Shown piece after piece: positions 1 to 25,857 of a DNA stretch of 32,903 bases. Within the stretch, counting starts at the first letter, position 1, and every line of letters begins with the position of its first letter. The DNA is from a virus. Lineage: Duplodnaviria > Heunggongvirae > Uroviricota > Caudoviricetes. The position numbers and the translations under genes were made by a program. The stretch lies in the IMG/VR virus record IMGVR_UViG_2778261576_000007; one strand, written 5' to 3'. Under the pieces are notes generated by a model that worked only from the letters and a program-made list of their open reading frames with translations, was not told where the DNA came from and searched no databases.

Positions 1-1014
1 TTACTCTACTGTGGACACTGTGTGGACACTCTCGGCCTCAGTACCACCTCTTAGCGGATTAAGAGAAATGGCGTCCTGAAGGTACTCTGGCGCAAAATGA
101 GCGTAAACCATAGTTTGTTCAATCCGCGTGTGACCTAGTATCCGTTGTAGCGTGATAATACTTCCTCCATTAATCATGAAATGAGTGGCAAAGCTGTGCC
201 TTAGTGCATGTGTGGCTTGCCCCATTGGCAAATCCGGTTTTATTGCTTTCATTGTTCGTCTGAAGCGAGGGTAATCAGCATCAGGGAATAAAAAACCTCG
301 TTTGTTATCCGCGATCATTTTGGCAACAGCCTCTGAGATCGGGACGGTGCGTGGTTTGTTTGTTTTCGTTTTAACAAACGTGACGCGGTTATGGATGATA
401 TTTTCTGCTTTCAAACGAGCTGCTTCTCCCCAACGTGCTCCAGTACTCAGGCAAAGAATCGCAATCTTTTTATTGTCGCCGTCAAGAGCAGCAAGCAGTA
501 AGGCAATTTCTTCCTGCGTGAGATAGCCTGTGTCTGGTTTTTCCTCCTTAAGCCTTTTTGTCCCTCTGATAGGGTGCTCACCAAAGAATAACTCCGCTTC
601 AATCAGGGCTGTAAACATGCCGCTAATACATGTTAAATCACGATTGATACTCGAAGGTTTAATACCCTGACTTCTTCGGGTGGCGCAGTACTGGCTGATA
701 AGCGATTTCGTAATTTGAAATGCGCATGGGTCATTCGTTATTTTTGTGAAGATTTCAATTTTTCCAAGATTAGATTTCCCATGCTCTTCGTGTTTACCCT
801 TTAAATCCCACCAGATCTGTGTCAGCTCCGACAGACGTCGCTTGTCTGTTGGTTTTGATAGCCATTCTTTATTGTGGTGGTTGTACAACGTGTATTTCTC
901 GAAAGCGACAGCTTCGCTTTTCTTATCAAACTTCCTACGGATGCGTTTTCCATTACGTCCAGTAGGGCGGATGTCCACTTCATATCGACCATCATCGAGT
1001 TTTTTGATTGCCAT
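1..1014 (-). CDS. int: Tyrosine integrase (P2 Int-like, 337 aa)
   Basis: ORF 1..1014 on the minus strand. C-terminal catalytic region shows the tyrosine recombinase signature (ATHALRHSFATH ... LGHTRIEQTMVYAHF). Position at the prophage end next to repressor C; length matches recalled P2 Int. Confidence 0.92.
   Translation of the reverse strand: MAIKKLDDGRYEVDIRPTGRNGKRIRRKFDKKSEAVAFEKYTLYNHHNKEWLSKPTDKRRLSELTQIWWDLKGKHEEHGKSNLGKIEIFTKITNDPCAFQITKSLISQYCATRRSQGIKPSSINRDLTCISGMFTALIEAELFFGEHPIRGTKRLKEEKPDTGYLTQEEIALLLAALDGDNKKIAILCLSTGARWGEAARLKAENIIHNRVTFVKTKTNKPRTVPISEAVAKMIADNKRGFLFPDADYPRFRRTMKAIKPDLPMGQATHALRHSFATHFMINGGSIITLQRILGHTRIEQTMVYAHFAPEYLQDAISLNPLRGGTEAESVHTVSTVE
10..30. repeat. 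Tandem direct repeat TGTGGACACT x2 (period 11), putative Int arm-type binding sites (P' arm)
   Basis: TGTGGACACT occurs at 10-19 and again at 21-30 inside the 3' end of int. Related TGTGGnC repeats with the same 11-bp period occur next to the right att core (31312-31333). Confidence 0.5.
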
Positions 1015-3311: not shown

Positions 3312-3583
3312 GTATTCGTATTGAAATTGGCGAACGTTATGTCGTTACCAGTGACAGCTTTCAGTTTATTCTCCACGAGAAAAAGAGAGCGGAAAGCGGT
3401 AAAAACGCCGGTCAGGAATGGCTGGCGGTGGTTGGTTATTACCCGAAATTAAGCCAGCTCGTTTCCGGCCTGATGCATCACGATATTCTGACCGGAAGCG
3501 CAAAGTCTTTTGCTGATTTAAACGCGCAGGTTGAGCAACTCAGCAGGCGTTGTTCAGAGGCTTTTGGCTCATATGGCCGTTAA
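3308..3583 (+). CDS. Early hypothetical protein (P2 orf83 position)
   Basis: ORF translationally coupled to its neighbours (ATGA overlap at 3308-3311). Confidence 0.7.
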   Translation: MSIRIEIGERYVVTSDSFQFILHEKKRAESGKNAGQEWLAVVGYYPKLSQLVSGLMHHDILTGSAKSFADLNAQVEQLSRRCSEAFGSYGR

Positions 3584-5852
3584 AGCCTCCGGGCGTTTTG
3601 TCCCTCCGTCAGCATTTGCTGCAGGCACCGGTAAGGCGTTTACCGGTGCTTATGCATGGAACGCGCCACGCGAGGCCGTCGGGCGCGAAAGACTCCTTAC
3701 ACGTGACGAGATGCGTCAGGTGCAAGGTGTTTTATCCACGATTAACCGCCTGCCTTACTTTTTGCGCTCGCTGTTTACTTCACGCTATGACTACATCCGG
3801 CACAATAAAAGCCCGGTGCACGGGTTTTATTTCCTCACATCCACTTTTCAGCGTCGTTTATGGCCGCGCATTGAGCGTGTGAATCAGCGCCATGAAATGA
3901 ACACCGACGCGTCGTTACTGTTTCTGGCAGAGCGTGACCACTATGCGCGCCTGCCGGGAATGAATGACAAGGAGCTGAAAAAGTTTGCCGCCCGTATCTC
4001 ATCGCAGCTTTTCATGATGTATGAGGAACTCTGCGATGCCTGGGTGGATGCGCATGGCGAAAAAGAATCGCTGTTTACGGATGAGGCGCAGGCGCATCTG
4101 TATGGTCATGTTGCTGGCGCTGCACGTGCTTTCAATATTTCCCCTCTCTACTGGAAAAAATACCGTAAAGGACAGATGACCACGAGGCAGGCATATTCTG
4201 CCATTGCCCGTCTGTTTAACGATGAGTGGTGGACTCATCAGCTTAAAGGCCAGCGTATGCGCTGGCATGAGGCGTTACTGATTGCTGTCGGGGAGGTCAA
4301 TAAAGACCGTTCTCCTTATGCCAGTAAACATGCCATTCGGGATGTGCGTGCACGCCGCCAGGCAAATCTGGAATTTCTTAAATCGTGTGACCTTGAAAAC
4401 AGGGAAACCGGCGAGCGCATCGACCTTATCAGTAAGGTGATGGGCAGTATTTCTAATCCTGAAATTCGCCGGATGGAGCTGATGAACACCATTGCCGGTA
4501 TTGAGCGTTACGCCGCTGCAGAGGGTGATGTGGGGATGTTTATCACGCTGACCGCGCCGTCAAAGTATCACCCGACACGTCAGGTCGGAAAAGGCGAAAG
4601 TAAAACCGTCCAGCTTAATCACGGCTGGAATGATGAGGCATTTAATCCAAAGGATGCGCAGCGTTATCTCTGCCGTATCTGGAGCCTGATGCGCACGGCA
4701 TTCAAGGATAATGATTTACAGGTCTACGGTTTGCGAGTCGTCGAGCCACACCACGACGGAACGCCGCACTGGCATATGATGCTTTTTTGTAATCCACGCC
4801 AGCGTAACCAGATTATCGAAATCATGCGTCGCTATGCGCTCAAAGAGGATGGCGACGAAAGAGGAGCCGCGCGAAACCGTTTTCAGGCAAAACATCTTAA
4901 CCAGGGCGGTGCTGCGGGGTATATCGCGAAATACATCTCAAAAAACATCGACGGCTATGCACTGGATGGGCAGCTCGATAACGATACCGGCAGACCGCTG
5001 AAAGATACTGCTGCGGCTGTTACCGCATGGGCGTCAACGTGGCGCATTCCGCAATTTAAAACGGTTGGACTGCCGACAATGGGGGCTTATCGTGAACTAC
5101 GCAAATTGCCTCGCGGCGTCAGTATTGCTGATGAGTTTGACGAACGCGTCGAGGCTGCTCGCGCTGCCGCAGACAGTGGTGATTTTGCGTTGTATATCAG
5201 CGCGCAGGGTGGGGCAAATGTCCCGCGCGATTGTCAGACTGTCAGGGTTGCCCGTAGCCCGTCGGATGACGTTAACGAGTACGAGGAAGAAGTCGAGAGA
5301 GTGGTCGGCATTTACGCGCCGCATCTCGGCGCGCGTCATATTCATATCACCAGAACGACGGACTGGCGCATTGTGCCGAAAGTTCCGGTCGTTGAGCCTT
5401 TGACTTTAAAAAGCGGCATCGCCGCGCCTCGGAGTCCTGTCAATAACTGTGGAAAGCTCACCGGTGGTGATACTTCGTTACCGGCTCCCACACCTTCTGA
5501 GCACGCCGCAGCAGTGCTAAATCTGGTTGATGACGGTGTTATCGAATGGAATGACCCGGGGGTCGTGAGGGCGCTCAGGGGTGCATTAAAACACGGTCGG
5601 AGAACGCCAAGTCGTCAGCAAAGAAACGGAAGCCCGTTAAAACCACATGAAATTGCACCATCGGCCAGACTGACCCGGTCTGAACGATTGCAAATCACCC
5701 GTATCCGTGTTGACCTTGCTCAAAACGGTATCAGGCCGCAGCGATGGGAGCTTGAGGCGTTAGTACGCGGTGCGATCGTCAATTACAATGAAAAGCAATT
5801 TTCATATCCTAGTGTAGATGAGTGGAGTGGGTTTTCTGGTTATTCAGAGTAA
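3573..5852 (+). CDS. A: Replication initiator A, HUH rolling-circle endonuclease
   Basis: HUH motif (PHWHMMLF) and tandem-tyrosine motif (AGYIAKYISKN) are visible. The preferred start is the ATG at 3573 (MAVKASGRF...), giving 759 aa; the track ORF starts further upstream at 3531 and overlaps orf83. Confidence 0.92.
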   Translation: MAVKASGRFVPPSAFAAGTGKAFTGAYAWNAPREAVGRERLLTRDEMRQVQGVLSTINRLPYFLRSLFTSRYDYIRHNKSPVHGFYFLTSTFQRRLWPRIERVNQRHEMNTDASLLFLAERDHYARLPGMNDKELKKFAARISSQLFMMYEELCDAWVDAHGEKESLFTDEAQAHLYGHVAGAARAFNISPLYWKKYRKGQMTTRQAYSAIARLFNDEWWTHQLKGQRMRWHEALLIAVGEVNKDRSPYASKHAIRDVRARRQANLEFLKSCDLENRETGERIDLISKVMGSISNPEIRRMELMNTIAGIERYAAAEGDVGMFITLTAPSKYHPTRQVGKGESKTVQLNHGWNDEAFNPKDAQRYLCRIWSLMRTAFKDNDLQVYGLRVVEPHHDGTPHWHMMLFCNPRQRNQIIEIMRRYALKEDGDERGAARNRFQAKHLNQGGAAGYIAKYISKNIDGYALDGQLDNDTGRPLKDTAAAVTAWASTWRIPQFKTVGLPTMGAYRELRKLPRGVSIADEFDERVEAARAAADSGDFALYISAQGGANVPRDCQTVRVARSPSDDVNEYEEEVERVVGIYAPHLGARHIHITRTTDWRIVPKVPVVEPLTLKSGIAAPRSPVNNCGKLTGGDTSLPAPTPSEHAAAVLNLVDDGVIEWNDPGVVRALRGALKHGRRTPSRQQRNGSPLKPHEIAPSARLTRSERLQITRIRVDLAQNGIRPQRWELEALVRGAIVNYNEKQFSYPSVDEWSGFSGYSE

Positions 5853-6056
5853 TAAACATAATGTTTTAGATTGGTTGCATAATGGTAAGGTTGCTGTTTA
5901 TCTGTATATGTTAATATGATTACGCTACGTACAAATAATCGACATTTCTTTTTTTTCTATATATTAATATTGATGATTTTACTGGTGGTACAATAAGTCT
6001 ATGTTGAAATTCGAGAATTGTATTATTAACAATAAAAACTGGTTCTTTTTATTATA

Positions 6057-6087
6057 CAAGGACCACCTCCTTAGGAGGTGGTCTTTT
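6057..6087 (+). terminator. Rho-independent terminator downstream of A, shared by the convergent cargo gene
   Basis: Perfect 10-bp stem GACCACCTCC (6061-6070), loop TTA, stem GGAGGTGGTC (6074-6083), then TTTT. It sits between the convergent 3' ends of A and the helicase-nuclease gene. Confidence 0.75.
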
Positions 6088-6092
6088 ACTGT

Positions 6093-8576
6093 TTAACGAG
6101 GGTTTCGCGTATAGGTTTCAACTATGTCTGATGCACGTAATTTACATGTGATCAATTGTTCTCTTATAAATATCTCATCGTGTCGTTTATCACTTGTACA
6201 AATGGCCGTGATAAAACTGAGGATAGATGCTTTAAAACGTTCAAGATCATTTATGGTCATTATTCGAGACCCTTCGTTTAGTGTTGCGGCATATTCAGGC
6301 ATGTTAGAGTGATGTATCATTATAGGTGTGGCGGTAGCAGTTTGATCATACATGTTTCTGAACCATGCACCCGACCCATTTAACTGATTGCAGTCATGCT
6401 TACTTATTCTTTCTGCGGTTGCTCCATTTTTGCATTCAATTACTAGATAATTGTTTTCTCCCATTGCCCATAAATTGTCAGGTCCTTTACCTGTATCATT
6501 TTCTGGCCGTTGGCTACGAAAACCGATCAAATATGCAACTTTTTCGATAGCATCTTCGAAGGGATTCGATGTGCCCTCGGAGAAAATAAGGTTTTCTATT
6601 ATTGAATTAGTATGCACAACGACTTGATTCGCCGATTCAAAATTACTTCTGAGATAGGAGCTACATTCCCTGGCCTGTTCAAGTGCCGCACCATTAAGTC
6701 TATTATATGTTACGCCGATTAGTGGTTTTAATACCCGATAGTTATCGTTTGATGCAGACTGAAGCAATATCTGAGCTTCAGATTTGTCATATAAGTTTAC
6801 ATATTCCGCAGCATGTTCTTTTAGATAACCCTTATAAACTTTGTCAGCTGTACTACTATCATTTTTTAGAGTTAAAGCGGCTTGTTGAAACATATTTCGT
6901 GATGCGAAGTCATATGCCAATCTTTTGTTTATAGTATGCTGGTCAATCTGCTTATTTTCCAATGTTAAGCCAGTCAATATACCTTTGCTTTTTGAGACCC
7001 AGTCAGAATTGCGTAACAGACAATAATCAAGAGCACCTTTGATTGAATCAATAGTTGTATCCGGCAGTATCGATACCAATTGCTGTGAAAGTTGAATTTG
7101 TGCTTTCGTTGCTGGAGAAAACCTTTCTAAGGAGGAGCCAAGGAAAACAGCGCCATTTAATGCTTTGCCAAGTAAGATCACTCCGCAGAAGTCGTCGCTT
7201 GATCTCACTCCTCGCCCCATTCCTTGTTCAATTTTCTGGATAATTTCATCTTTGGTTTTTTCGCTTCCAAGCAATAAGCTTTGTGAGACTTTATCTATTA
7301 GTCTACGAACGTCAGGAAGTCCATCTATTACTAATAGACGACATGCGGTATTTGGTAAATCAATACCATCATATCTATTAACTAGGACTACTAAGCCAAC
7401 ATGTTGTGTCCTTAATTCTTGTACACCTTGATAAATTGTATTTTTATCTAATATTCTGTCTGCAACATCTTGCCAAAATCTAGTTCTGTAATCGGATGGT
7501 ACAATTACAACAACATTATGTTTGGAGGATATCTCCTTGCACATAGCTTTGATATCTACATCAGAAAGACTAGGGTTTATAACCTGAGGCATTAGTATCA
7601 TTCTATCACCAATATCACCAATTGTTTTTGGTGTTATCGGATTAGAGAGTGATTCATCCGTTATTCCGAAGTGGCTCGCTAGAATGGATTCATCGACAAG
7701 AGTAGCTGTCATGAATATTTTTCTTCTTGCGTTTGATAGGCTTGGGATCATTTGGATTGGTATGCAATGAGGTGATATCTCTATTTTGGAAGCACTTACA
7801 ACGCATTTCGATAATATTAGATTGTCTTTTATTAATGGCCATTTGAAACTCAAGTCATCATGGTCTTTATTTTCTAACAAGATTGTCATTATATCATTTA
7901 TGCTTTCTTGCCATTTCCAAAATGGAACTCTCACATAAGCATTTCTATCGCCGGATTTTATCTCTAGTGTTTTTGCACCAGCTTGTGTCATTAGTGAATT
8001 TTCAAAAATTCTGAATAATTTATCATAGGCAGGGTTATTTTTTTGAATGCTAATGGAGAATTGTTCTTCAATTGAAGAAAGGCAAGCGTGAGCATCGTCA
8101 ATTATTATAGAACCTATTGGTATTTTTTGTCCATCATCTCCAACGCCAAATGCAGAACGTCCATTAACCACTTTGAATATATTTGTAACTAAAATTTCTT
8201 TACCTGCAATAAATTTGGGGGACCTCTCATCTTGAGTTACAGGTATACCAAGTTGATTAGCCTCCAAAACCACTTGCTCAACTAGATAGTTGTCAGGAAC
8301 AACATATACAGCGGGACCTTCTCCTTCATTTATACAGCTTTTAAGAATGATTAACCCAACTGAAGTTTTACCGCTTCCGGTATTCATTTTTATTACATTG
8401 GTTGGGCTTCTCCTTGCTTCATACCATTTTTCCCAGACCTCTGATTGCACATCTCGAGGGTATTGAAATTTGGTGTCTTTGCTCGGTAGAGCTGTAAATA
8501 TATCTCGTGGTGGAATCGCTGTGTCGCTATTTACACTGGGCGAAAGCTTGGTTAAATCAAGGAAAAAACCAGACAT
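6093..8576 (-). CDS. Cargo protein: SF2 helicase fused to a C-terminal PD-(D/E)xK-like nuclease (827 aa); candidate anti-phage defence protein
   Basis: Helicase motifs: I NTGSGKTS, II IIIDDAHA, III FMTATL, VI QGMGRGVR. Near the C-terminus, GPDNLW followed 12 residues later by LVIECK fits a PD-(D/E)xK nuclease. About 38% GC in a sampled segment against about 50-55% in the backbone. Occupies the old/tin position between A and cos. RBS AAGAGGA precedes the ATG at 8576. Confidence 0.6.
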   Translation of the reverse strand: MSGFFLDLTKLSPSVNSDTAIPPRDIFTALPSKDTKFQYPRDVQSEVWEKWYEARRSPTNVIKMNTGSGKTSVGLIILKSCINEGEGPAVYVVPDNYLVEQVVLEANQLGIPVTQDERSPKFIAGKEILVTNIFKVVNGRSAFGVGDDGQKIPIGSIIIDDAHACLSSIEEQFSISIQKNNPAYDKLFRIFENSLMTQAGAKTLEIKSGDRNAYVRVPFWKWQESINDIMTILLENKDHDDLSFKWPLIKDNLILSKCVVSASKIEISPHCIPIQMIPSLSNARRKIFMTATLVDESILASHFGITDESLSNPITPKTIGDIGDRMILMPQVINPSLSDVDIKAMCKEISSKHNVVVIVPSDYRTRFWQDVADRILDKNTIYQGVQELRTQHVGLVVLVNRYDGIDLPNTACRLLVIDGLPDVRRLIDKVSQSLLLGSEKTKDEIIQKIEQGMGRGVRSSDDFCGVILLGKALNGAVFLGSSLERFSPATKAQIQLSQQLVSILPDTTIDSIKGALDYCLLRNSDWVSKSKGILTGLTLENKQIDQHTINKRLAYDFASRNMFQQAALTLKNDSSTADKVYKGYLKEHAAEYVNLYDKSEAQILLQSASNDNYRVLKPLIGVTYNRLNGAALEQARECSSYLRSNFESANQVVVHTNSIIENLIFSEGTSNPFEDAIEKVAYLIGFRSQRPENDTGKGPDNLWAMGENNYLVIECKNGATAERISKHDCNQLNGSGAWFRNMYDQTATATPIMIHHSNMPEYAATLNEGSRIMTINDLERFKASILSFITAICTSDKRHDEIFIREQLITCKLRASDIVETYTRNPR

Positions 8577-8759
8577 TTTTTATCCTCTTACAGGTACATT
8601 AGTTTAATTGTTAACGCAGAATTATCATTACCATAACTTGCATTAAGTTGCATTACATTGCATTCATAAACGTTAGCTAGGGGCGAAGTCTGAGGTTTGA
8701 TGGGCTATGGTGTCCCCTTTAATACGAGGTTGCATCAAAACTGCCCCATGAAGCGGGCG

Positions 8760-8778
8760 GGCGAGGCGGGGAAAGCAC
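8760..8778 (+). other. cos site (19-nt cohesive-end sequence GGCGAGGCGGGGAAAGCAC)
   Basis: Exact match to the P2 cohesive-end sequence as I recall it. It lies between the cargo gene and Q, as expected for a P2 prophage. Confidence 0.75.
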
Positions 8779-8920
8779 TGCGCGCTGACGGTGGTGCTGA
8801 TTGTATTTTTTCAGCGTCTCAGCGCGTCGTGACGGCGCTTAGTCTGCCCGTTGAGGCGTTGGTGTGTCTGCGGGGTGTTTTGTGCGGTGGTGAGCGTGTG
8901 AGGGCGTGATGACAGGGTGT

Positions 8921-8942
8921 AAAAAAGCCGCCCGCAGGCGGC
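8921..8942 (-). terminator. Rho-independent terminator of the P-Q operon
   Basis: On the minus strand: GCCGCC-UGCG-GGCGGC followed by UUUUUU, immediately after the Q stop codon. Confidence 0.7.
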
Positions 8943-8947
8943 GATGT

Positions 8948-9982
8948 TCAGCCGTTGTCTGTGTCCAGTGAGTAGTTTTTAAAGCGGATGACCTCCTGAC
9001 CGAGCCAGCCGTTTATTTCCCGAATCCTGTCCTGTAACGGGATAAGCTCATTGCGGACAAAGACCTTTGCCACTTTCTCAATATCACCCAGCGACCCGAC
9101 GTTCTCCGGCTTGCCGCCCATCAACTGAAAGGGGATGCGGTGCGCGTCCAGCAGGTCAGCGGCGCTGGCTTTTTTGATATTAAAAAAATCGTCCTTCGTT
9201 GCCACTTCACTGAGCGGGATAATTTTAATGCCGTCAGCTTTCCCCTGCGGGGCATAGAGAAACAGATTTTTAAAGTTGTTGCGGCCTTTTGACTTCACCA
9301 TGTTTTCGCGAAGCATTTCGATATCGTTGCGATCCTGCACGGCATCGGTGACGTACATGATGTATCCGGCATGAGCGCCGTTTTCGTAATACTTGCGGCG
9401 GAACAGCGTGGCTGACTCATTCAGCCAGGCAGAGTTAAGGGCGCTGAGATATTCCGGAAGGCCGTACAGCTCCTGATTAATATCCGGCTCCAGCAGGTGA
9501 AACACGGAGCCGGGCGCGAAGGCTGTCGGCTCGTTGAAGGACGGCACCCACCAGTAAACATCCTCCTCCACGCCACGACGGGTATATTTGGCCGGTGAGG
9601 TTTCCAGTCTGATGACCTTACCGGTGGTGCTGTAACGCTTTTCCAGAAACGCATTACCGAACACCAGAAAATCCAGCACAAAGCGGCTGAAATCCTGTTG
9701 CGAAAGCCACGGATGCGGGATAAATGTCGAGGCCAGAATATTGCGTTTAACGTAAATCGGTGAGCTGTGATGCACGGCAGCACGCAGGCTTTTCGCCAGA
9801 CCGGTAAAGCTGACCGGTGGCTCATACCATCTGCCGTTACTGATGCACTCGACGTAATCCAGAATGTCACGGCGGTCGAGTACCGGCACCGGCTCGCCAA
9901 AGGTGAATGCTTCCATTTTCGGGGAGCTGGCGGTCATTTTTTTTGCCGCAGGTTGCGGTGTTTTCCCTTTTTTCTTGCTCAT
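8948..9982 (-). CDS. Q: Portal protein Q (344 aa)
   Basis: Size and position after the terminase; start overlaps the P stop (TGATG). Confidence 0.9.
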   Translation of the reverse strand: MSKKKGKTPQPAAKKMTASSPKMEAFTFGEPVPVLDRRDILDYVECISNGRWYEPPVSFTGLAKSLRAAVHHSSPIYVKRNILASTFIPHPWLSQQDFSRFVLDFLVFGNAFLEKRYSTTGKVIRLETSPAKYTRRGVEEDVYWWVPSFNEPTAFAPGSVFHLLEPDINQELYGLPEYLSALNSAWLNESATLFRRKYYENGAHAGYIMYVTDAVQDRNDIEMLRENMVKSKGRNNFKNLFLYAPQGKADGIKIIPLSEVATKDDFFNIKKASAADLLDAHRIPFQLMGGKPENVGSLGDIEKVAKVFVRNELIPLQDRIREINGWLGQEVIRFKNYSLDTDNG

Positions 9983-22942: not shown

Positions 22943-23470
22943 ATGCAGCATTTGATAAATATAACCGCGGGTAATCCAAAAACGGTTGAACAATATCAAT
23001 TGACAAAGGGCTTTGATGTTGTCTGGTTTTTTACAGAAGATGGTAAGAACTGGTACGAAGAACAAAAGTATTTTGCTGATGACACGATAAAAATAGCGTA
23101 CGACAAGGATAATATTATCCGCTATGTGGAAAAAGATGTGACAGCTATCAGACCAGATGGATTAAGTGTGGTTGAAGTGGCGGATATTACTGCTAACCGA
23201 CGGGCGGACATTTCAGGGAACTGGATGTTTAAGGACGGCAAAGTGATTAAACGCATTTATACGGCAGAGGAATTGCAGCAGCAGGCAGAAAACCGGAAAG
23301 CCAGACTTCTTGCAGATGCTGAATCCGTGATTTTGCCACTGGAGCGCGCGGTCAGACTGAACATGGCAACAGATGAGGAGCGTAGCCGACTGGAAGCATG
23401 GGAGCGTTACAGCGTTCTGGTCAGTCGTGTGGATCCTGCAAATCCTGAATGGCCGGAAATGCCGCAATAA
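22943..23470 (+). CDS. G: Tail fibre assembly chaperone G (175 aa)
   Basis: Immediately downstream of H; AT-rich like the distal part of H. Confidence 0.82.
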
Positions 23471-23597: not shown

Positions 23598-24407
23598 TCA
23601 CTTAATTATTGGATAACTCACACATGTATGGCCGTTGCTTATAGCATACATTTGGTTTCCCTTAAGATTTACAAATGGAAATGTCGTATACTCATAATTT
23701 ACAGATGTCATGTTAAATGTAAGGAATTTATCTTTAAGTTCTAATTTTGTTGAGTGTGCAGGGTATATTCCTTCATTTTTAATTGTGATAATAAAACCGA
23801 TAGGAAAAAAATGTAAAGCACAAATAAATGCTACATGTCCTTCGTTCATAAATGCTACACTTTGAGCTGATATGTGCATTCTGTGTGGGTAAAACCAGTA
23901 GTAAATATCATGAGTCTCCTCAAAACTTGGATTCTTACCCAAAACATAATCTTTTAAAGGTGTATAGAAGGGGCTATCTACGGGTTCTTTTTTACAATCT
24001 TCAACTGAAGTTGCCGATAGCACGTGTCCAATCATAGCCTTAGTGAAAGATATGCTATCAAAAGGTATTCTAATGAATGGATATACATTCATACCATTCA
24101 TATATTGACTCAACTGTTCTTTAAAGGACTTTGCTACATTTTCAATTGCAACGTCGAGTCCACCTAACACCTTATTGTTACAGTGGCTGCAAATGGTTTT
24201 GAAATAAGAGCCGTTTTTAGCATTTAATGGTTTAACTGGTTCCTGAACACCAAAAAATTCGCTAACTGTTTTCTGAAGAACAGGACCTAAGGTTATGGCA
24301 CACTTTGGAGGAACATGATCTTTTGTGAGGAAGTCATATTTTCCACAAATATTGCAATAACCTTTAGTAATGCCGTTGTGCTTCCATCGTTCACTAATTT
24401 GCGTCAT
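23598..24407 (-). CDS. Cargo protein with N-terminal HNH (His-Me finger) nuclease motif and an uncharacterised C-terminal domain (269 aa)
   Basis: CNICG ... DHVPPK ... N ... CSHCNNK fits the HNH pattern. About 27% GC in a sampled segment. The preferred start is the ATG at 24407 with GAGGGA 7 nt upstream; the track ORF begins at a TTG at 24422. Occupies the Z/fun position between G and FI. Confidence 0.55.
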   Translation of the reverse strand: MTQISERWKHNGITKGYCNICGKYDFLTKDHVPPKCAITLGPVLQKTVSEFFGVQEPVKPLNAKNGSYFKTICSHCNNKVLGGLDVAIENVAKSFKEQLSQYMNGMNVYPFIRIPFDSISFTKAMIGHVLSATSVEDCKKEPVDSPFYTPLKDYVLGKNPSFEETHDIYYWFYPHRMHISAQSVAFMNEGHVAFICALHFFPIGFIITIKNEGIYPAHSTKLELKDKFLTFNMTSVNYEYTTFPFVNLKGNQMYAISNGHTCVSYPIIK

Positions 24408-24542
24408 TTTTTGTTCCCTCAATAGTATAAGCTATCTATACATTTTTTAATCCTATCAAAGATACAACTTAACGTCAGGGAAATGATAGTGTTTTGGCTA
24501 TGTAAATTGTCAGTCGGAAAATGAGTGAGTACAAATCAGGAC

Positions 24543-24666: not shown

Positions 24667-25857
24667 ATGAGTGACTATCATCACGGCGTGCAGGTGCTGG
24701 AGATTAACGACGGCACCCGCGTCATTTCCACCGTATCCACGGCCATTGTCGGCATGGTCTGCACGGCCAGCGATGCGGATGCGGAAACCTTCCCCCTCAA
24801 TAAACCGGTGCTGATTACCAATGTGCAGAGCGCAATTGCAAAGGCCGGTAAAAAAGGCACGCTGGCGGCATCGTTGCAGGCCATCGCCGACCAGTCAAAA
24901 CCGGTCACCGTTGTCGTGCGTGTGGAAGACGGCACCGGCGACGACGAGGAAACGAAACTCGCGCAGACCGTTTCCAATATCATCGGCACCACCGACGAAA
25001 ACGGTCAGTACACCGGACTGAAAGCCCTGCTGGCGGCGGAGTCGGTAACCGGTGTAAAACCGCGTATTCTCGGCGTGCCGGGACTGGATACCAAAGAGGT
25101 GGCTGTTGCACTGGCATCAGTCTGTCAGAAGCTGCGCGCTTTCGGATATATCAGCGCATGGGGCTGTAAGACCATTTCCGAGGTGAAAGCCTACCGCCAG
25201 AATTTCAGCCAGCGTGAGCTGATGGTCATCTGGCCGGATTTCCTCGCATGGGATACGGTCACCAGTACCACCGCCACCGCGTATGCCACCGCCCGTGCGC
25301 TGGGTCTGCGCGCTAAAATCGACCAGGAGCAGGGCTGGCATAAAACGCTGTCCAATGTCGGGGTGAACGGTGTTACCGGCATCAGCGCATCCGTCTTCTG
25401 GGATTTGCAGGAGTCCGGCACCGATGCTGACCTGCTTAACGAGTCAGGCGTCACTACGCTGATTCGCCGCGACGGTTTCCGCTTCTGGGGTAACCGTACC
25501 TGCTCCGATGACCCGCTGTTCCTCTTTGAAAACTACACCCGTACCGCGCAGGTGCTGGCCGACACGATGGCTGAGGCGCACATGTGGGCGGTGGACAAGC
25601 CCATCACCGCAACGCTGATTCGCGACATCGTTGACGGCATCAATGCCAAATTCCGTGAGCTGAAAACAAACGGCTATATCGTGGATGCGACCTGCTGGTT
25701 CAGCGAAGAATCCAACGATGCGGAAACCCTCAAGGCCGGAAAACTGTATATCGACTACGACTATACCCCGGTGCCTCCTCTTGAAAACCTGACCCTGCGC
25801 CAGCGTATTACCGATAAATACCTGGCAAATCTGGTCACCTCGGTTAACAGCAATTAA
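24667..25857 (+). CDS. FI: Tail sheath protein FI (396 aa)
   Basis: Synteny and size. Confidence 0.92.
   Translation: MSDYHHGVQVLEINDGTRVISTVSTAIVGMVCTASDADAETFPLNKPVLITNVQSAIAKAGKKGTLAASLQAIADQSKPVTVVVRVEDGTGDDEETKLAQTVSNIIGTTDENGQYTGLKALLAAESVTGVKPRILGVPGLDTKEVAVALASVCQKLRAFGYISAWGCKTISEVKAYRQNFSQRELMVIWPDFLAWDTVTSTTATAYATARALGLRAKIDQEQGWHKTLSNVGVNGVTGISASVFWDLQESGTDADLLNESGVTTLIRRDGFRFWGNRTCSDDPLFLFENYTRTAQVLADTMAEAHMWAVDKPITATLIRDIVDGINAKFRELKTNGYIVDATCWFSEESNDAETLKAGKLYIDYDYTPVPPLENLTLRQRITDKYLANLVTSVNSN

Follow-up and report, generated by a model that had tools for sequence, protein, structure and literature searches.

The window, a stretch of 32,903 nucleotides of viral DNA (IMG/VR record IMGVR_UViG_2778261576_000007), carries a phage P2 backbone that is interrupted between gene A and the cos site by a segment of much lower GC content. 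The positions that the sequence-only reading had given for A, cos and Q were all confirmed (Table 1), and the cos site is identical to P2 cosR. The GC content is 0.366 for positions 5853-8730 and 0.532 across the remaining window, placing the cargo 16 points under the backbone. When compared with the P2 annotation, the A-cos slot of the reference phage contains orf91, tin and old; none of these three genes was found between A and cos in the window. As that reading had proposed, old and tin are replaced by one leftward gene of low GC content at 6093-8576, referred to hereafter as hna. Megablast homology to sequenced P2-like phages stops at about 5825-5843 on the left side and restarts at about 8731 on the right side. 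In one P2-like phage that carries a different cargo, this homology reaches 5920.

Table 1. Features of the A-cos cargo and of the adjoining P2 backbone, with positions in the window.
Feature	Position	Strand	Basis or remark
Gene A	3573-5852		RefSeq-equivalent start; backbone left of the cargo
AT-rich non-coding spacer at the left cargo edge, 3' of the gene A stop	5853..6057		GC 0.33
Terminator-like hairpin, 13-bp stem with 7 GC pairs, T-run	6058..6086	+	Between convergent A and hna
hna, Hna-family helicase-nuclease anti-phage protein, 827 aa, ATG start	6093..8576	-	PADLOC PDC-S28; phrog_16128
C-terminal PD-(D/E)xK nuclease domain, residues 666-827	6096..6581	-	
All-helical extension and linker from ATPase core to nuclease, residues 471-665	6582..7166	-	AF2 secondary structure
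DinG/XPD-like SF2 ATPase core, residues 39-470	7167..8462	-	Pfam ResIII, DEAD and Helicase_C_2 matches
Ribosome-binding site AAGAGGA, 6 nt 5' of the ATG	8583..8589	-	Direct sequence reading
Probable resident hotspot promoter region	8611..8667	-	Alignment to the annotated P2 old upstream region
Position aligned with the mapped P2 old-tin transcript starts	~8611-8613	-	
-10-like GATAAT in the promoter region	8626..8621	-	
Three tandem TTGCATTNNN units	8638-8667		Common to the window and P2
P2 cos, 19-nt cohesive end GGCGAGGCGGGGAAAGCAC	8760-8778	+	Identical to annotated phage P2 cosR
Terminator-like hairpin and T-run directly downstream of Q	8927..8942	-	Backbone, not cargo
Portal gene Q	8948-9982	-	Backbone right of the cargo

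The cargo is organised as a single gene. hna is the sole ORF of more than 45 aa wholly inside it (5853 to ~8730), in agreement with the earlier statement that neither a methyltransferase nor a partner gene accompanies it, and the spacer left of hna contains no ORF of more than 33 aa. A 70-aa ORF at 8697-8909 overlaps cos and lies in the shared backbone. With 827 codons at a GC content of 37% and thousands of full-length homologues, the hna ORF is far beyond what would be expected by chance.

The gene has its own ribosome-binding site, as noted before. The hairpin that the sequence-only reading had assigned to the terminator of gene A is found 6 nt from the hna stop, and it is located 206 nt past the A stop; it was scored on the + strand only, and a role as the terminator of hna is putative. 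On the upstream side, a sigma-70 consensus scan returned no site and the total of promoter-like sites was that expected from shuffled sequences; the promoter assignment is therefore drawn from the alignment with P2. This alignment suggests that transcription of hna probably starts from an old/tin-type promoter that is resident at the hotspot and adjoins cos.

Profile searches (Pfam, PADLOC), structure prediction and fold searches were run on the 827-aa protein. The helicase motifs I, II, III and VI and the nuclease motifs are present where they had been read from the sequence. The ATPase core contains the Q-motif residues R41/Q44, the Walker A lysine K70 (GSGKT, 67-71), DDAH (160-163), TATL (290-293) and motif VI, EQGMGRGVR (450-458, with QGMGRGVR at 451-458); these motifs are invariant in both homologue alignments. 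Its Arch insertion is reduced and, with respect to an FeS cluster, the sequence contains no four-Cys cluster. The nuclease domain carries GPDNLW (698-703) and IECK (713-716), and GPDNLW and LVIECK are separated by 7 residues rather than by the 12 previously counted. The catalytic residues P699/D700 (nt 6477-6482) and E714 and K716 (nt 6429-6437) are invariant across 38 homologues. The "~250 residues of unknown function" of the sequence-only reading correspond to an all-helical extension and linker of ~200-240 residues; the helical stretch 471-665 is also present in solved Hna and is covered by the superposition described below.

Resemblance to type III Res subunits and to helicase-nucleases of the Hna kind had both been proposed. 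The first is reduced to a generic match, as the Pfam ResIII hit (E = 8.7e-10) is confined to the N-lobe of the ATPase (residues 40-168). A weak match to TIGR04095 (dnd restriction) scored 23 bits, compared with a cutoff of 600 bits. It is extremely improbable that the gene encodes an orphan Res subunit or a different helicase-nuclease of the restriction type, directed against unmodified incoming DNA: the hna island contains neither a methyltransferase nor any other gene, and Res subunits are not among the top structural matches, which are Hna and then XPD/DinG. A type IV CRISPR CasDinG (Csf4) was also considered and rejected; the profile match is partial (E = 2.5e-12, residues 265-476), TM-scores are ~0.35-0.37 and the neighbouring genes are P2 A and Q. 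Likewise, no match to the HamA, HamB or Nhi models of PADLOC was obtained and the domain order is helicase then nuclease, so that Hachiman and Nhi were set aside.

The resemblance to Hna was borne out by sequence, profile and fold, and the protein is a member of this family. For comparison, the full Sinorhizobium meliloti Hna ORF was taken from pSymA by tblastn of the plasmid collection. By blastp, the two proteins are 32% identical over 732 residues (E = 1e-130), and their global identity is 30%. A phmmer search against the PDB retrieved the Hna entries 10uj/9yhn/9ykj (845 aa) with E = 4.7e-121 and residues 60-792 aligned; the alignment to these chains does not include the N-terminal 60 residues. 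On the PADLOC profile PDLC04986 (PDC-S28), the window protein scored 1056 bits over profile positions 2-826 of 831, and S. meliloti Hna also matched this profile end to end with 941 bits. NCBIfam gave sub-threshold matches only. The AF2 model (pLDDT 83, pTM 0.72) superposed on the cryo-EM monomer of Hna, 9YHN, with TM-scores of 0.90/0.90, an rmsd of 2.9 A and E = 3.6e-62; the second tier of matches, comprising XPD, DinG and CasDinG, reached TM-scores of only 0.35-0.5. In a genome contig scan, S. meliloti was absent among the best 80 homologue loci, and the proteins of these loci are all about equally far from S. meliloti Hna (~32% identity).

Conservation extends to the residues on which activity depends. 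R41/Q44 correspond to R36/Q39 of S. meliloti Hna, which are needed for ATPase activity, and P699/D700/E714/K716 align with P712/D713/E727/K729, which were mutated experimentally in that protein. R41/Q44, K70, DDAH, EQGMGRxxR, P699/D700, E714 and K716, all of them invariant in the family, align with residues of S. meliloti Hna whose replacement eliminates ATPase or nuclease activity.

The distribution of the gene is that of mobile cargo. The earlier proposal to survey P2-like prophages was followed up; of 5426 complete E. coli genomes, 70 (~1.3%) carry the hna island in a P2-like prophage; these 70 represent ~3% of the 2140 E. coli genomes with a cos-Q flank. None of the isolated P2-like phages of the phage collection carries hna. 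The identical protein occurs on 156 contigs, copies that are 98-99% identical are found in E. coli, E. albertii and Salmonella, and, elsewhere, integrative elements and plasmids carry homologues as lone cargo genes. In Table S5B of Rousset et al. 2022, this same protein appears as P2-hotspot system #28, 'ResIII/DEAD', with 130 occurrences, and the same study describes many other cargos in this slot. A literature search under the name "PDC-S28" retrieved nothing beyond an unrelated survey.

These data bear on two further readings. Since the ATPase core is DinG/XPD-like and the gene adjoins the replication gene A, hna might encode a replication, repair or recombination helicase that serves the life cycle of the P2-like phage itself. 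This is hardly credible for a gene that is missing from all isolated P2-like phages of the collection, is present in few of the E. coli genomes with the cos-Q flank and is far poorer in GC than the backbone; furthermore, the same slot holds old and tin in P2 and other cargos elsewhere, and S. meliloti Hna has no unwinding activity. The second reading, in which the gene is a decayed or inactive remnant that no longer has a function, could be suggested by the absence of system #28 from the validated P2 systems reported by Rousset et al. 2022, but its probability is next to nil given that the ORF is full-length with all catalytic motifs intact and that identical or 98-99% identical copies are spread over many contigs and three taxa. 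We consider that the gene is very probably a prophage-borne hna, i.e. a single-gene Hna defence carried as lysogenic-conversion cargo by an E. coli P2-like prophage in place of old and tin.

Hna is a helicase-nuclease that mediates abortive infection, and its founding member is encoded by S. meliloti pSymA (Sather et al. 2023; Hooper et al. 2026). For S. meliloti Hna and for an E. coli Hna, the literature reports resistance to phage through abortive infection with the phage SSB as the trigger; a citing paper also describes E. coli Hna as activated by SSB. By homology, the most likely activity of the window protein is that of a 3'-5' ssDNA exonuclease restrained by ATP; the SSB of a superinfecting phage would unleash it, and abortive infection would follow. 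On the model of S. meliloti Hna, it would be a Mg-dependent exonuclease and not a processive unwinding helicase. The PD-(D/E)xK site (D700/E714/K716) would be kept off as long as the DinG-like ATPase core binds ATP, a restraint that would take the form of an auto-inhibited homodimer if the S. meliloti case applies. Expression of its own SSB by a superinfecting phage would relieve this inhibition; DNA integrity would then be lost to the unchecked exonuclease, and the infected lysogen would die or arrest with no release of phage. Sister lysogens, and hence the prophage, would be protected. No SSB-like gene was detected within the window, so the prophage should not set off its own cargo; a prophage that lacks an SSB would be a logical host for a suicide nuclease triggered by this protein.

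The way in which the nuclease is restrained may differ between the two proteins. In S. meliloti Hna, the HEL1 loop residues T30/D31/P34 form the ATP-stabilised auto-inhibited dimer; these residues, which were mutated in that protein, align with D34/T35/Q38 of the window protein and are not conserved. Given these replacements, the ATP-dependent auto-inhibited dimer may be differently built or absent. The clade of the window protein has an invariant N-terminal motif of its own, P23 R24 .. L30 P31 .. Y39 P40 R41 D42 .. Q44 (PR..F..LP.K...YPRD.Q), and the loop region shows strong conservation inside this clade. The dimer-loop residues are a mechanistic detail of one member and not a family-defining motif.

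These differences raise the question of whether the window protein is a divergent one with the Hna fold, in which the catalytic machinery is kept whilst regulation or trigger are unlike those of S. meliloti, for example with no HEL1-loop homodimer and with a phage factor other than SSB. An identity of only ~30%, the replaced loop residues together with the separate motif of the clade, and the diversity among Hna orthologues in phage-factor recognition that Hooper et al. expect are consistent with it. Against it stand the superposition over the whole chain, the retention of the Q-motif and of all catalytic residues, and the activation of E. coli Hna by SSB that the citing paper states. Such a divergence of the protein is quite unlikely in our view. 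A related proposal, which we regard as unlikely, is that the P2-borne enterobacterial clade with its own N-terminal motif has a different auto-inhibition or trigger, for example by responding to another phage protein or by sparing the SSB-less P2 whilst killing competitors that encode an SSB. If this were the case, the clade would provide a natural comparison for the retargeting of a sensor on one defence scaffold.

The sequence-only reading is supported in part. Its fusion of an SF2 helicase to a PD-(D/E)xK nuclease as a single-gene candidate anti-phage cargo of the P2 A-cos hotspot is upheld. Its suggestion of an undescribed single-protein system did not survive: the protein belongs to PDC-S28 over its full length, shares this profile with S. 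meliloti Hna, matches the Hna PDB entries in sequence and in fold and had already been listed as system #28, and the finding of a known named system by domain searches, here Hna, is an outcome that the reading itself had set against its proposal. The family is already named, with cryo-EM structures, a published mechanism and detection by PADLOC, and the protein is already tabulated at the hotspot. As hna belongs to a named and structurally solved family and had been catalogued at this position, it is ordinary known defence cargo and no new system. What is gained is a common reading, Hna, for PDC-S28, system #28 'ResIII/DEAD', phrog_16128 and the RefSeq name "DEAD/DEAH box helicase family protein", an outcome that amounts to bookkeeping and has little weight as a discovery.

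When compared with known systems, the gene shares with P2 old and tin the slot, the leftward orientation, the upstream region beside cos and a role in exclusion by the prophage; however, Old (an OLD-family ATPase-nuclease) and Tin are unrelated to the hna product, and Old lacks its combination of DinG-like ATPase and PD-(D/E)xK domain. Nhi and Hachiman (HamAB) are also defences that associate a helicase with a nuclease and are likewise reported to be responsive to phage SSB. In contrast to the window protein, Hachiman consists of two proteins, the DUF1837 nuclease HamA and the helicase HamB, and in Nhi an N-terminal nuclease is followed by the helicase, which belongs to SF1. DinG, XPD, CasDinG and ExoDinG have two RecA-like lobes and an Arch-type insertion in common with the window protein, and ExoDinG proteins are likewise 3'-5' ssDNA exonucleases. 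The window protein differs from these helicases by TM-scores of only 0.35-0.5, by the lack of an FeS domain, by the lack of nearby type IV CRISPR genes and by its nuclease, a C-terminal PD-(D/E)xK domain; the exonuclease domain of ExoDinG is N-terminal. PDC-S28, system #28 of Rousset et al. 2022 and phrog_16128 are one family, the table and PHROG entries being the same protein; they are catalogue labels with no mechanism attached and are tied to Hna through the PADLOC match of the S. meliloti protein. S. meliloti Hna itself differs by its sequence (30-32% identity), by a deletion of 7 residues between the Q-motif and motif I in the window protein, by its dimer-loop residues and by its carrier, a rhizobial megaplasmid instead of an E. 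coli P2-like prophage. The two also have features in common: each system consists of one gene, the products are close in length (827 and 845 aa), and both combine an N-terminal DinG-like SF2 ATPase that lacks FeS, a helical linker and a C-terminal PD-(D/E)xK nuclease; they have the same R/Q residues in the Q-motif and the same residues at Walker A, DDAH, motif VI and PD..ExK; and they share one PADLOC profile and one fold (TM 0.90).

The window is a complete P2-like prophage in which a single cargo gene, hna, holds the slot occupied in reference P2 by orf91, tin and old. The sequence-only reading had placed a leftward gene of low GC content here instead of old/tin, and this was borne out: hna is the sole long ORF from the stop of gene A to cos, and the GC content of the island is 0.33-0.40, compared to 0.50-0.57 in the flanks (0.366 at 5853-8730 and 0.532 in the remaining window by direct computation). 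The motifs quoted in that reading were all found where it had put them, with GPDNLW and LVIECK separated by 7 residues rather than 12. In megablast comparisons with sequenced P2-like phages, homology ends on the left at ~5825-5843 (at 5920 in one phage with a different cargo) and restarts on the right at ~8731; the cargo is thus ~2.9 kb long. An ORF search found no second ORF of more than 45 aa wholly inside it. E. coli 6EVA carries an identical island, and its RefSeq gene order runs from int, C-like repressor and cox through to replication endonuclease, "DEAD/DEAH box helicase family protein", portal and terminase. A housekeeping phage helicase was excluded by sporadic presence, low GC content and the other cargo found in the slot of related phages.

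Features of the window, of an hna homologue and of the encoded proteins
Feature	Position	Strand	Description
Gene A stop	5852		replication gene, left neighbour of the cargo
hna ORF	6093..8576	leftward	827 aa, ATG start
Ribosome-binding site AAGAGGA	6 nt 5' of hna ATG
-10-like GATAAT	8626..8621		upstream of hna
Tandem 10-bp units TTGCATTNNN, x3	8638-8667	+	62-91 nt upstream of hna start
70-aa ORF	8697-8909		overlaps cos, belongs to shared backbone
cos	8760-8778		19-nt cohesive end GGCGAGGCGGGGAAAGCAC, same as reference P2
Portal gene Q	8948-9982	minus	beyond cos
Tail-fibre assembly gene	22943-23470		one flank of second cargo gene
Second cargo gene	23598-24422	-	274 aa
Tail sheath gene	24667-25857		other flank of second cargo gene
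Pectobacterium homologue	L084 (Pectobacterium locus) 6001-8490		80% identical; integrase-bounded island, adjoins Hcp and genes with LmuB_C and MC3 Pfam hits
ATP-coordinating Q-motif	R41/Q44		R36/Q39 in S. meliloti Hna
Walker A lysine	K70		K72 in S. meliloti Hna
Motif II	DDAH 160-163		DDAH in S. meliloti Hna
Motif VI	EQGMGRGVR 450-458		EQGMGRxxR in S. meliloti Hna
Nuclease residues	P699/D700/E714/K716		P712/D713/E727/K729 in S. meliloti Hna
Dimer-interface loop	D34/T35/Q38		T30/D31/P34 in S. meliloti Hna

The 180 bp from the hna start to cos can be aligned with the region upstream of P2 old; the aligned stretch covers three repeats with TGCAT and the sites where old-tin transcripts were mapped to begin. 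Together with the -10-like GATAAT, this alignment suggests that cargo genes of the A-cos slot share one resident promoter; a generic sigma-70 scan gave no support for a consensus promoter upstream of hna. The TGCAT triplet is also kept upstream of old in phage P2 (L086, ~5952-5981), in the interval that separates cos from the mapped starts of old-tin transcription. The three TTGCATTNNN units could be promoter elements, operator elements or part of an extended cos region.

A second low-GC cargo gene (GC ~0.34-0.37) lies in the window at P2's second accessory hotspot and probably starts at M6, giving 269 aa. Its product contains the Cys motifs CNICGK..DHVPPK and CSHCNNK and has no PADLOC match, no significant Pfam match and no PDB relative; the only family match is phrog_21495, of unknown function, and RefSeq labels it 'hypothetical protein'. 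Present in 133/5426 E. coli genomes, this gene may be more novel than the hna finding.

For the 827-aa protein, Pfam returned generic helicase pieces only (ResIII and DEAD at residues 40-172, Helicase_C_2 at 400-471). The PADLOC profile PDLC04986, which defines the candidate single-gene system PDC-S28, was matched end to end (E = 0, 1056 bits, profile positions 2-826 of 831), and phrog_16128, of unknown function, is apparently the same protein. Among PDB sequences there was one strong relative of 845 aa (entries 10UJ, 9YHN and 9YKJ; E = 4.7e-121); the alignment spans residues 60-792 and takes in the GPDNLW...ECK segment. It is named "Helicase ATP-binding domain-containing protein" and its fold-library labels are "Hna Monomer" and "Hna Dimer". 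The complete hna ORF of S. meliloti was taken from pSymA (L083:5815-8352, 845 aa); its numbering agrees with the residues named in published Hna work. Two unannotated convergent ORFs of 308 aa and 415 aa lie directly downstream (L083 8431-10622). Identity between the window protein and S. meliloti Hna is 32% over 732 residues locally (E = 1e-130) and 30% globally. As S. meliloti Hna also matches PDLC04986 (941 bits), PDC-S28 and Hna are one family. An AlphaFold2 model built with 38 homologues (mean pLDDT 83, pTM 0.72) matched the Hna monomer with TM 0.90/0.90 (rmsd 2.9 Å, E = 3.6e-62), the next tier being XPD, DinG and CasDinG at TM 0.35-0.5. CasDinG was ruled out because only part of its profile matched, TM was low and there are no CRISPR genes. 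The resemblance to type III Res subunits noted in the sequence-only reading is confined to the N-lobe, where ResIII matches; with a Mod gene lacking and a fold that does not agree, an orphan Res subunit was excluded. The gene belongs to the known, named, structurally and biochemically characterised Hna family.

The gene had also been recorded at this position. Rousset et al. 2022 surveyed all E. coli genomes for P2-like prophages and their gpA-gpQ locus, finding 18,150 loci and curating 169 systems. Their Table S5B lists, as "system 28, ResIII/DEAD, 130 occurrences", a protein whose N-terminal sequence is that of the window protein; system 28 is not named among their three newly validated P2 systems. 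The earlier view of defence cargo in a low-GC island of the A-cos slot was right; that of a possible undescribed single-protein system has to be abandoned. Among 5426 complete E. coli genomes, 70 contain this 3.1-kb island with at least 99% identity. In public databases the exact protein occurs on 156 contigs, and its 90% cluster, drawn from E. coli, E. albertii and Salmonella, has 206 members. With intact motifs and a protein that is conserved in different hosts, the gene is unlikely to be a dead remnant. Nucleotide and protein searches of the phage collection found the island in no isolated phage genome. The sole protein-level match there, H86, is on AFYI01000007.1, a 501-kb Salmonella Infantis contig, evidently of bacterial origin although classed with the phage records; an Hna homologue is thus absent from every isolated phage of the collection.

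Residues were compared with S. meliloti Hna through alignment A2 and a pairwise global alignment. The positions mutated in S. meliloti ATPase and nuclease tests are invariant or nearly so among 38 diverse homologues. In the S. meliloti protein, K729A abolished exonuclease activity, P712A/D713A/E727A reduced it, and R36A/Q39A abolished ATPase activity (Hooper et al. 2026). No four-cysteine cluster was found between motifs I and II of the window protein, which fits the published description of Hna as FeS-less with a reduced Arch. The dimer-interface triplet is the sole tested feature without a counterpart, and the window clade has its own invariant N-terminal motif (P23, R24, F27, L30, P31, K33, Y39, P40, R41, D42, Q44).

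S. meliloti Hna is a Mg/Mn-dependent 3'-5' ssDNA exonuclease that does not unwind DNA; its homodimer is stabilised by ATP binding, not hydrolysis, with the nuclease domain disengaged, and mutants unable to bind ATP or to dimerise are hyperactive and toxic (Hooper et al. 2026). It is reported to be triggered by phage SSB, with abortive infection as the outcome. By homology, the window protein would likewise be a Mg/Mn-dependent 3'-5' ssDNA exonuclease without unwinding activity, ATP binding would hold a homodimer with disengaged nuclease domain, and activation would end in abortive infection. We transfer the catalytic chemistry with good confidence, and the dimer switch and trigger with only moderate confidence because the dimer-loop residues are not conserved; the only rival still live is an Hna fold that is regulated in a divergent way. 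The window gave no SSB-like match in tblastn with E. coli SSB (E <= 10), a search that a very divergent SSB would escape, so the prophage should not trigger its own hna.

More than 3900 90%-identity clusters, uniformly ~827-835 aa in length, match the window protein at E <= 1e-5. Two peptide patterns were enough to retrieve relatives from 280 species-representative genomes (Gammaproteobacteria, Alphaproteobacteria, Cyanobacteria, Bacillota, Actinomycetota, Acidobacteriota and others), and relatives are also carried by a further 205 plasmids. A distant second member (full length, 29% identical, E = 2e-94, matches H55-H62) is carried by a conserved ~37.7-kb plasmid of many Salmonella enterica and some E. 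coli. Two or more Hna lineages, borne by different mobile elements, thus occur in enterobacteria; this bears on which E. coli Hna the literature tested. The Pectobacterium homologue, whose LmuB_C and MC3 neighbours are possibly Lamassu-type, sits outside any P2 prophage; the same gene therefore moves between kinds of mobile element. The P. aeruginosa homologue is in an integrase/RepC element, and that of Legionella shares its element with an anti-restriction gene and HigBA-like toxin-antitoxin pairs. All sampled contexts were mobile and the gene was always solitary, in agreement with the broad distribution and horizontal transfer published for Hna.
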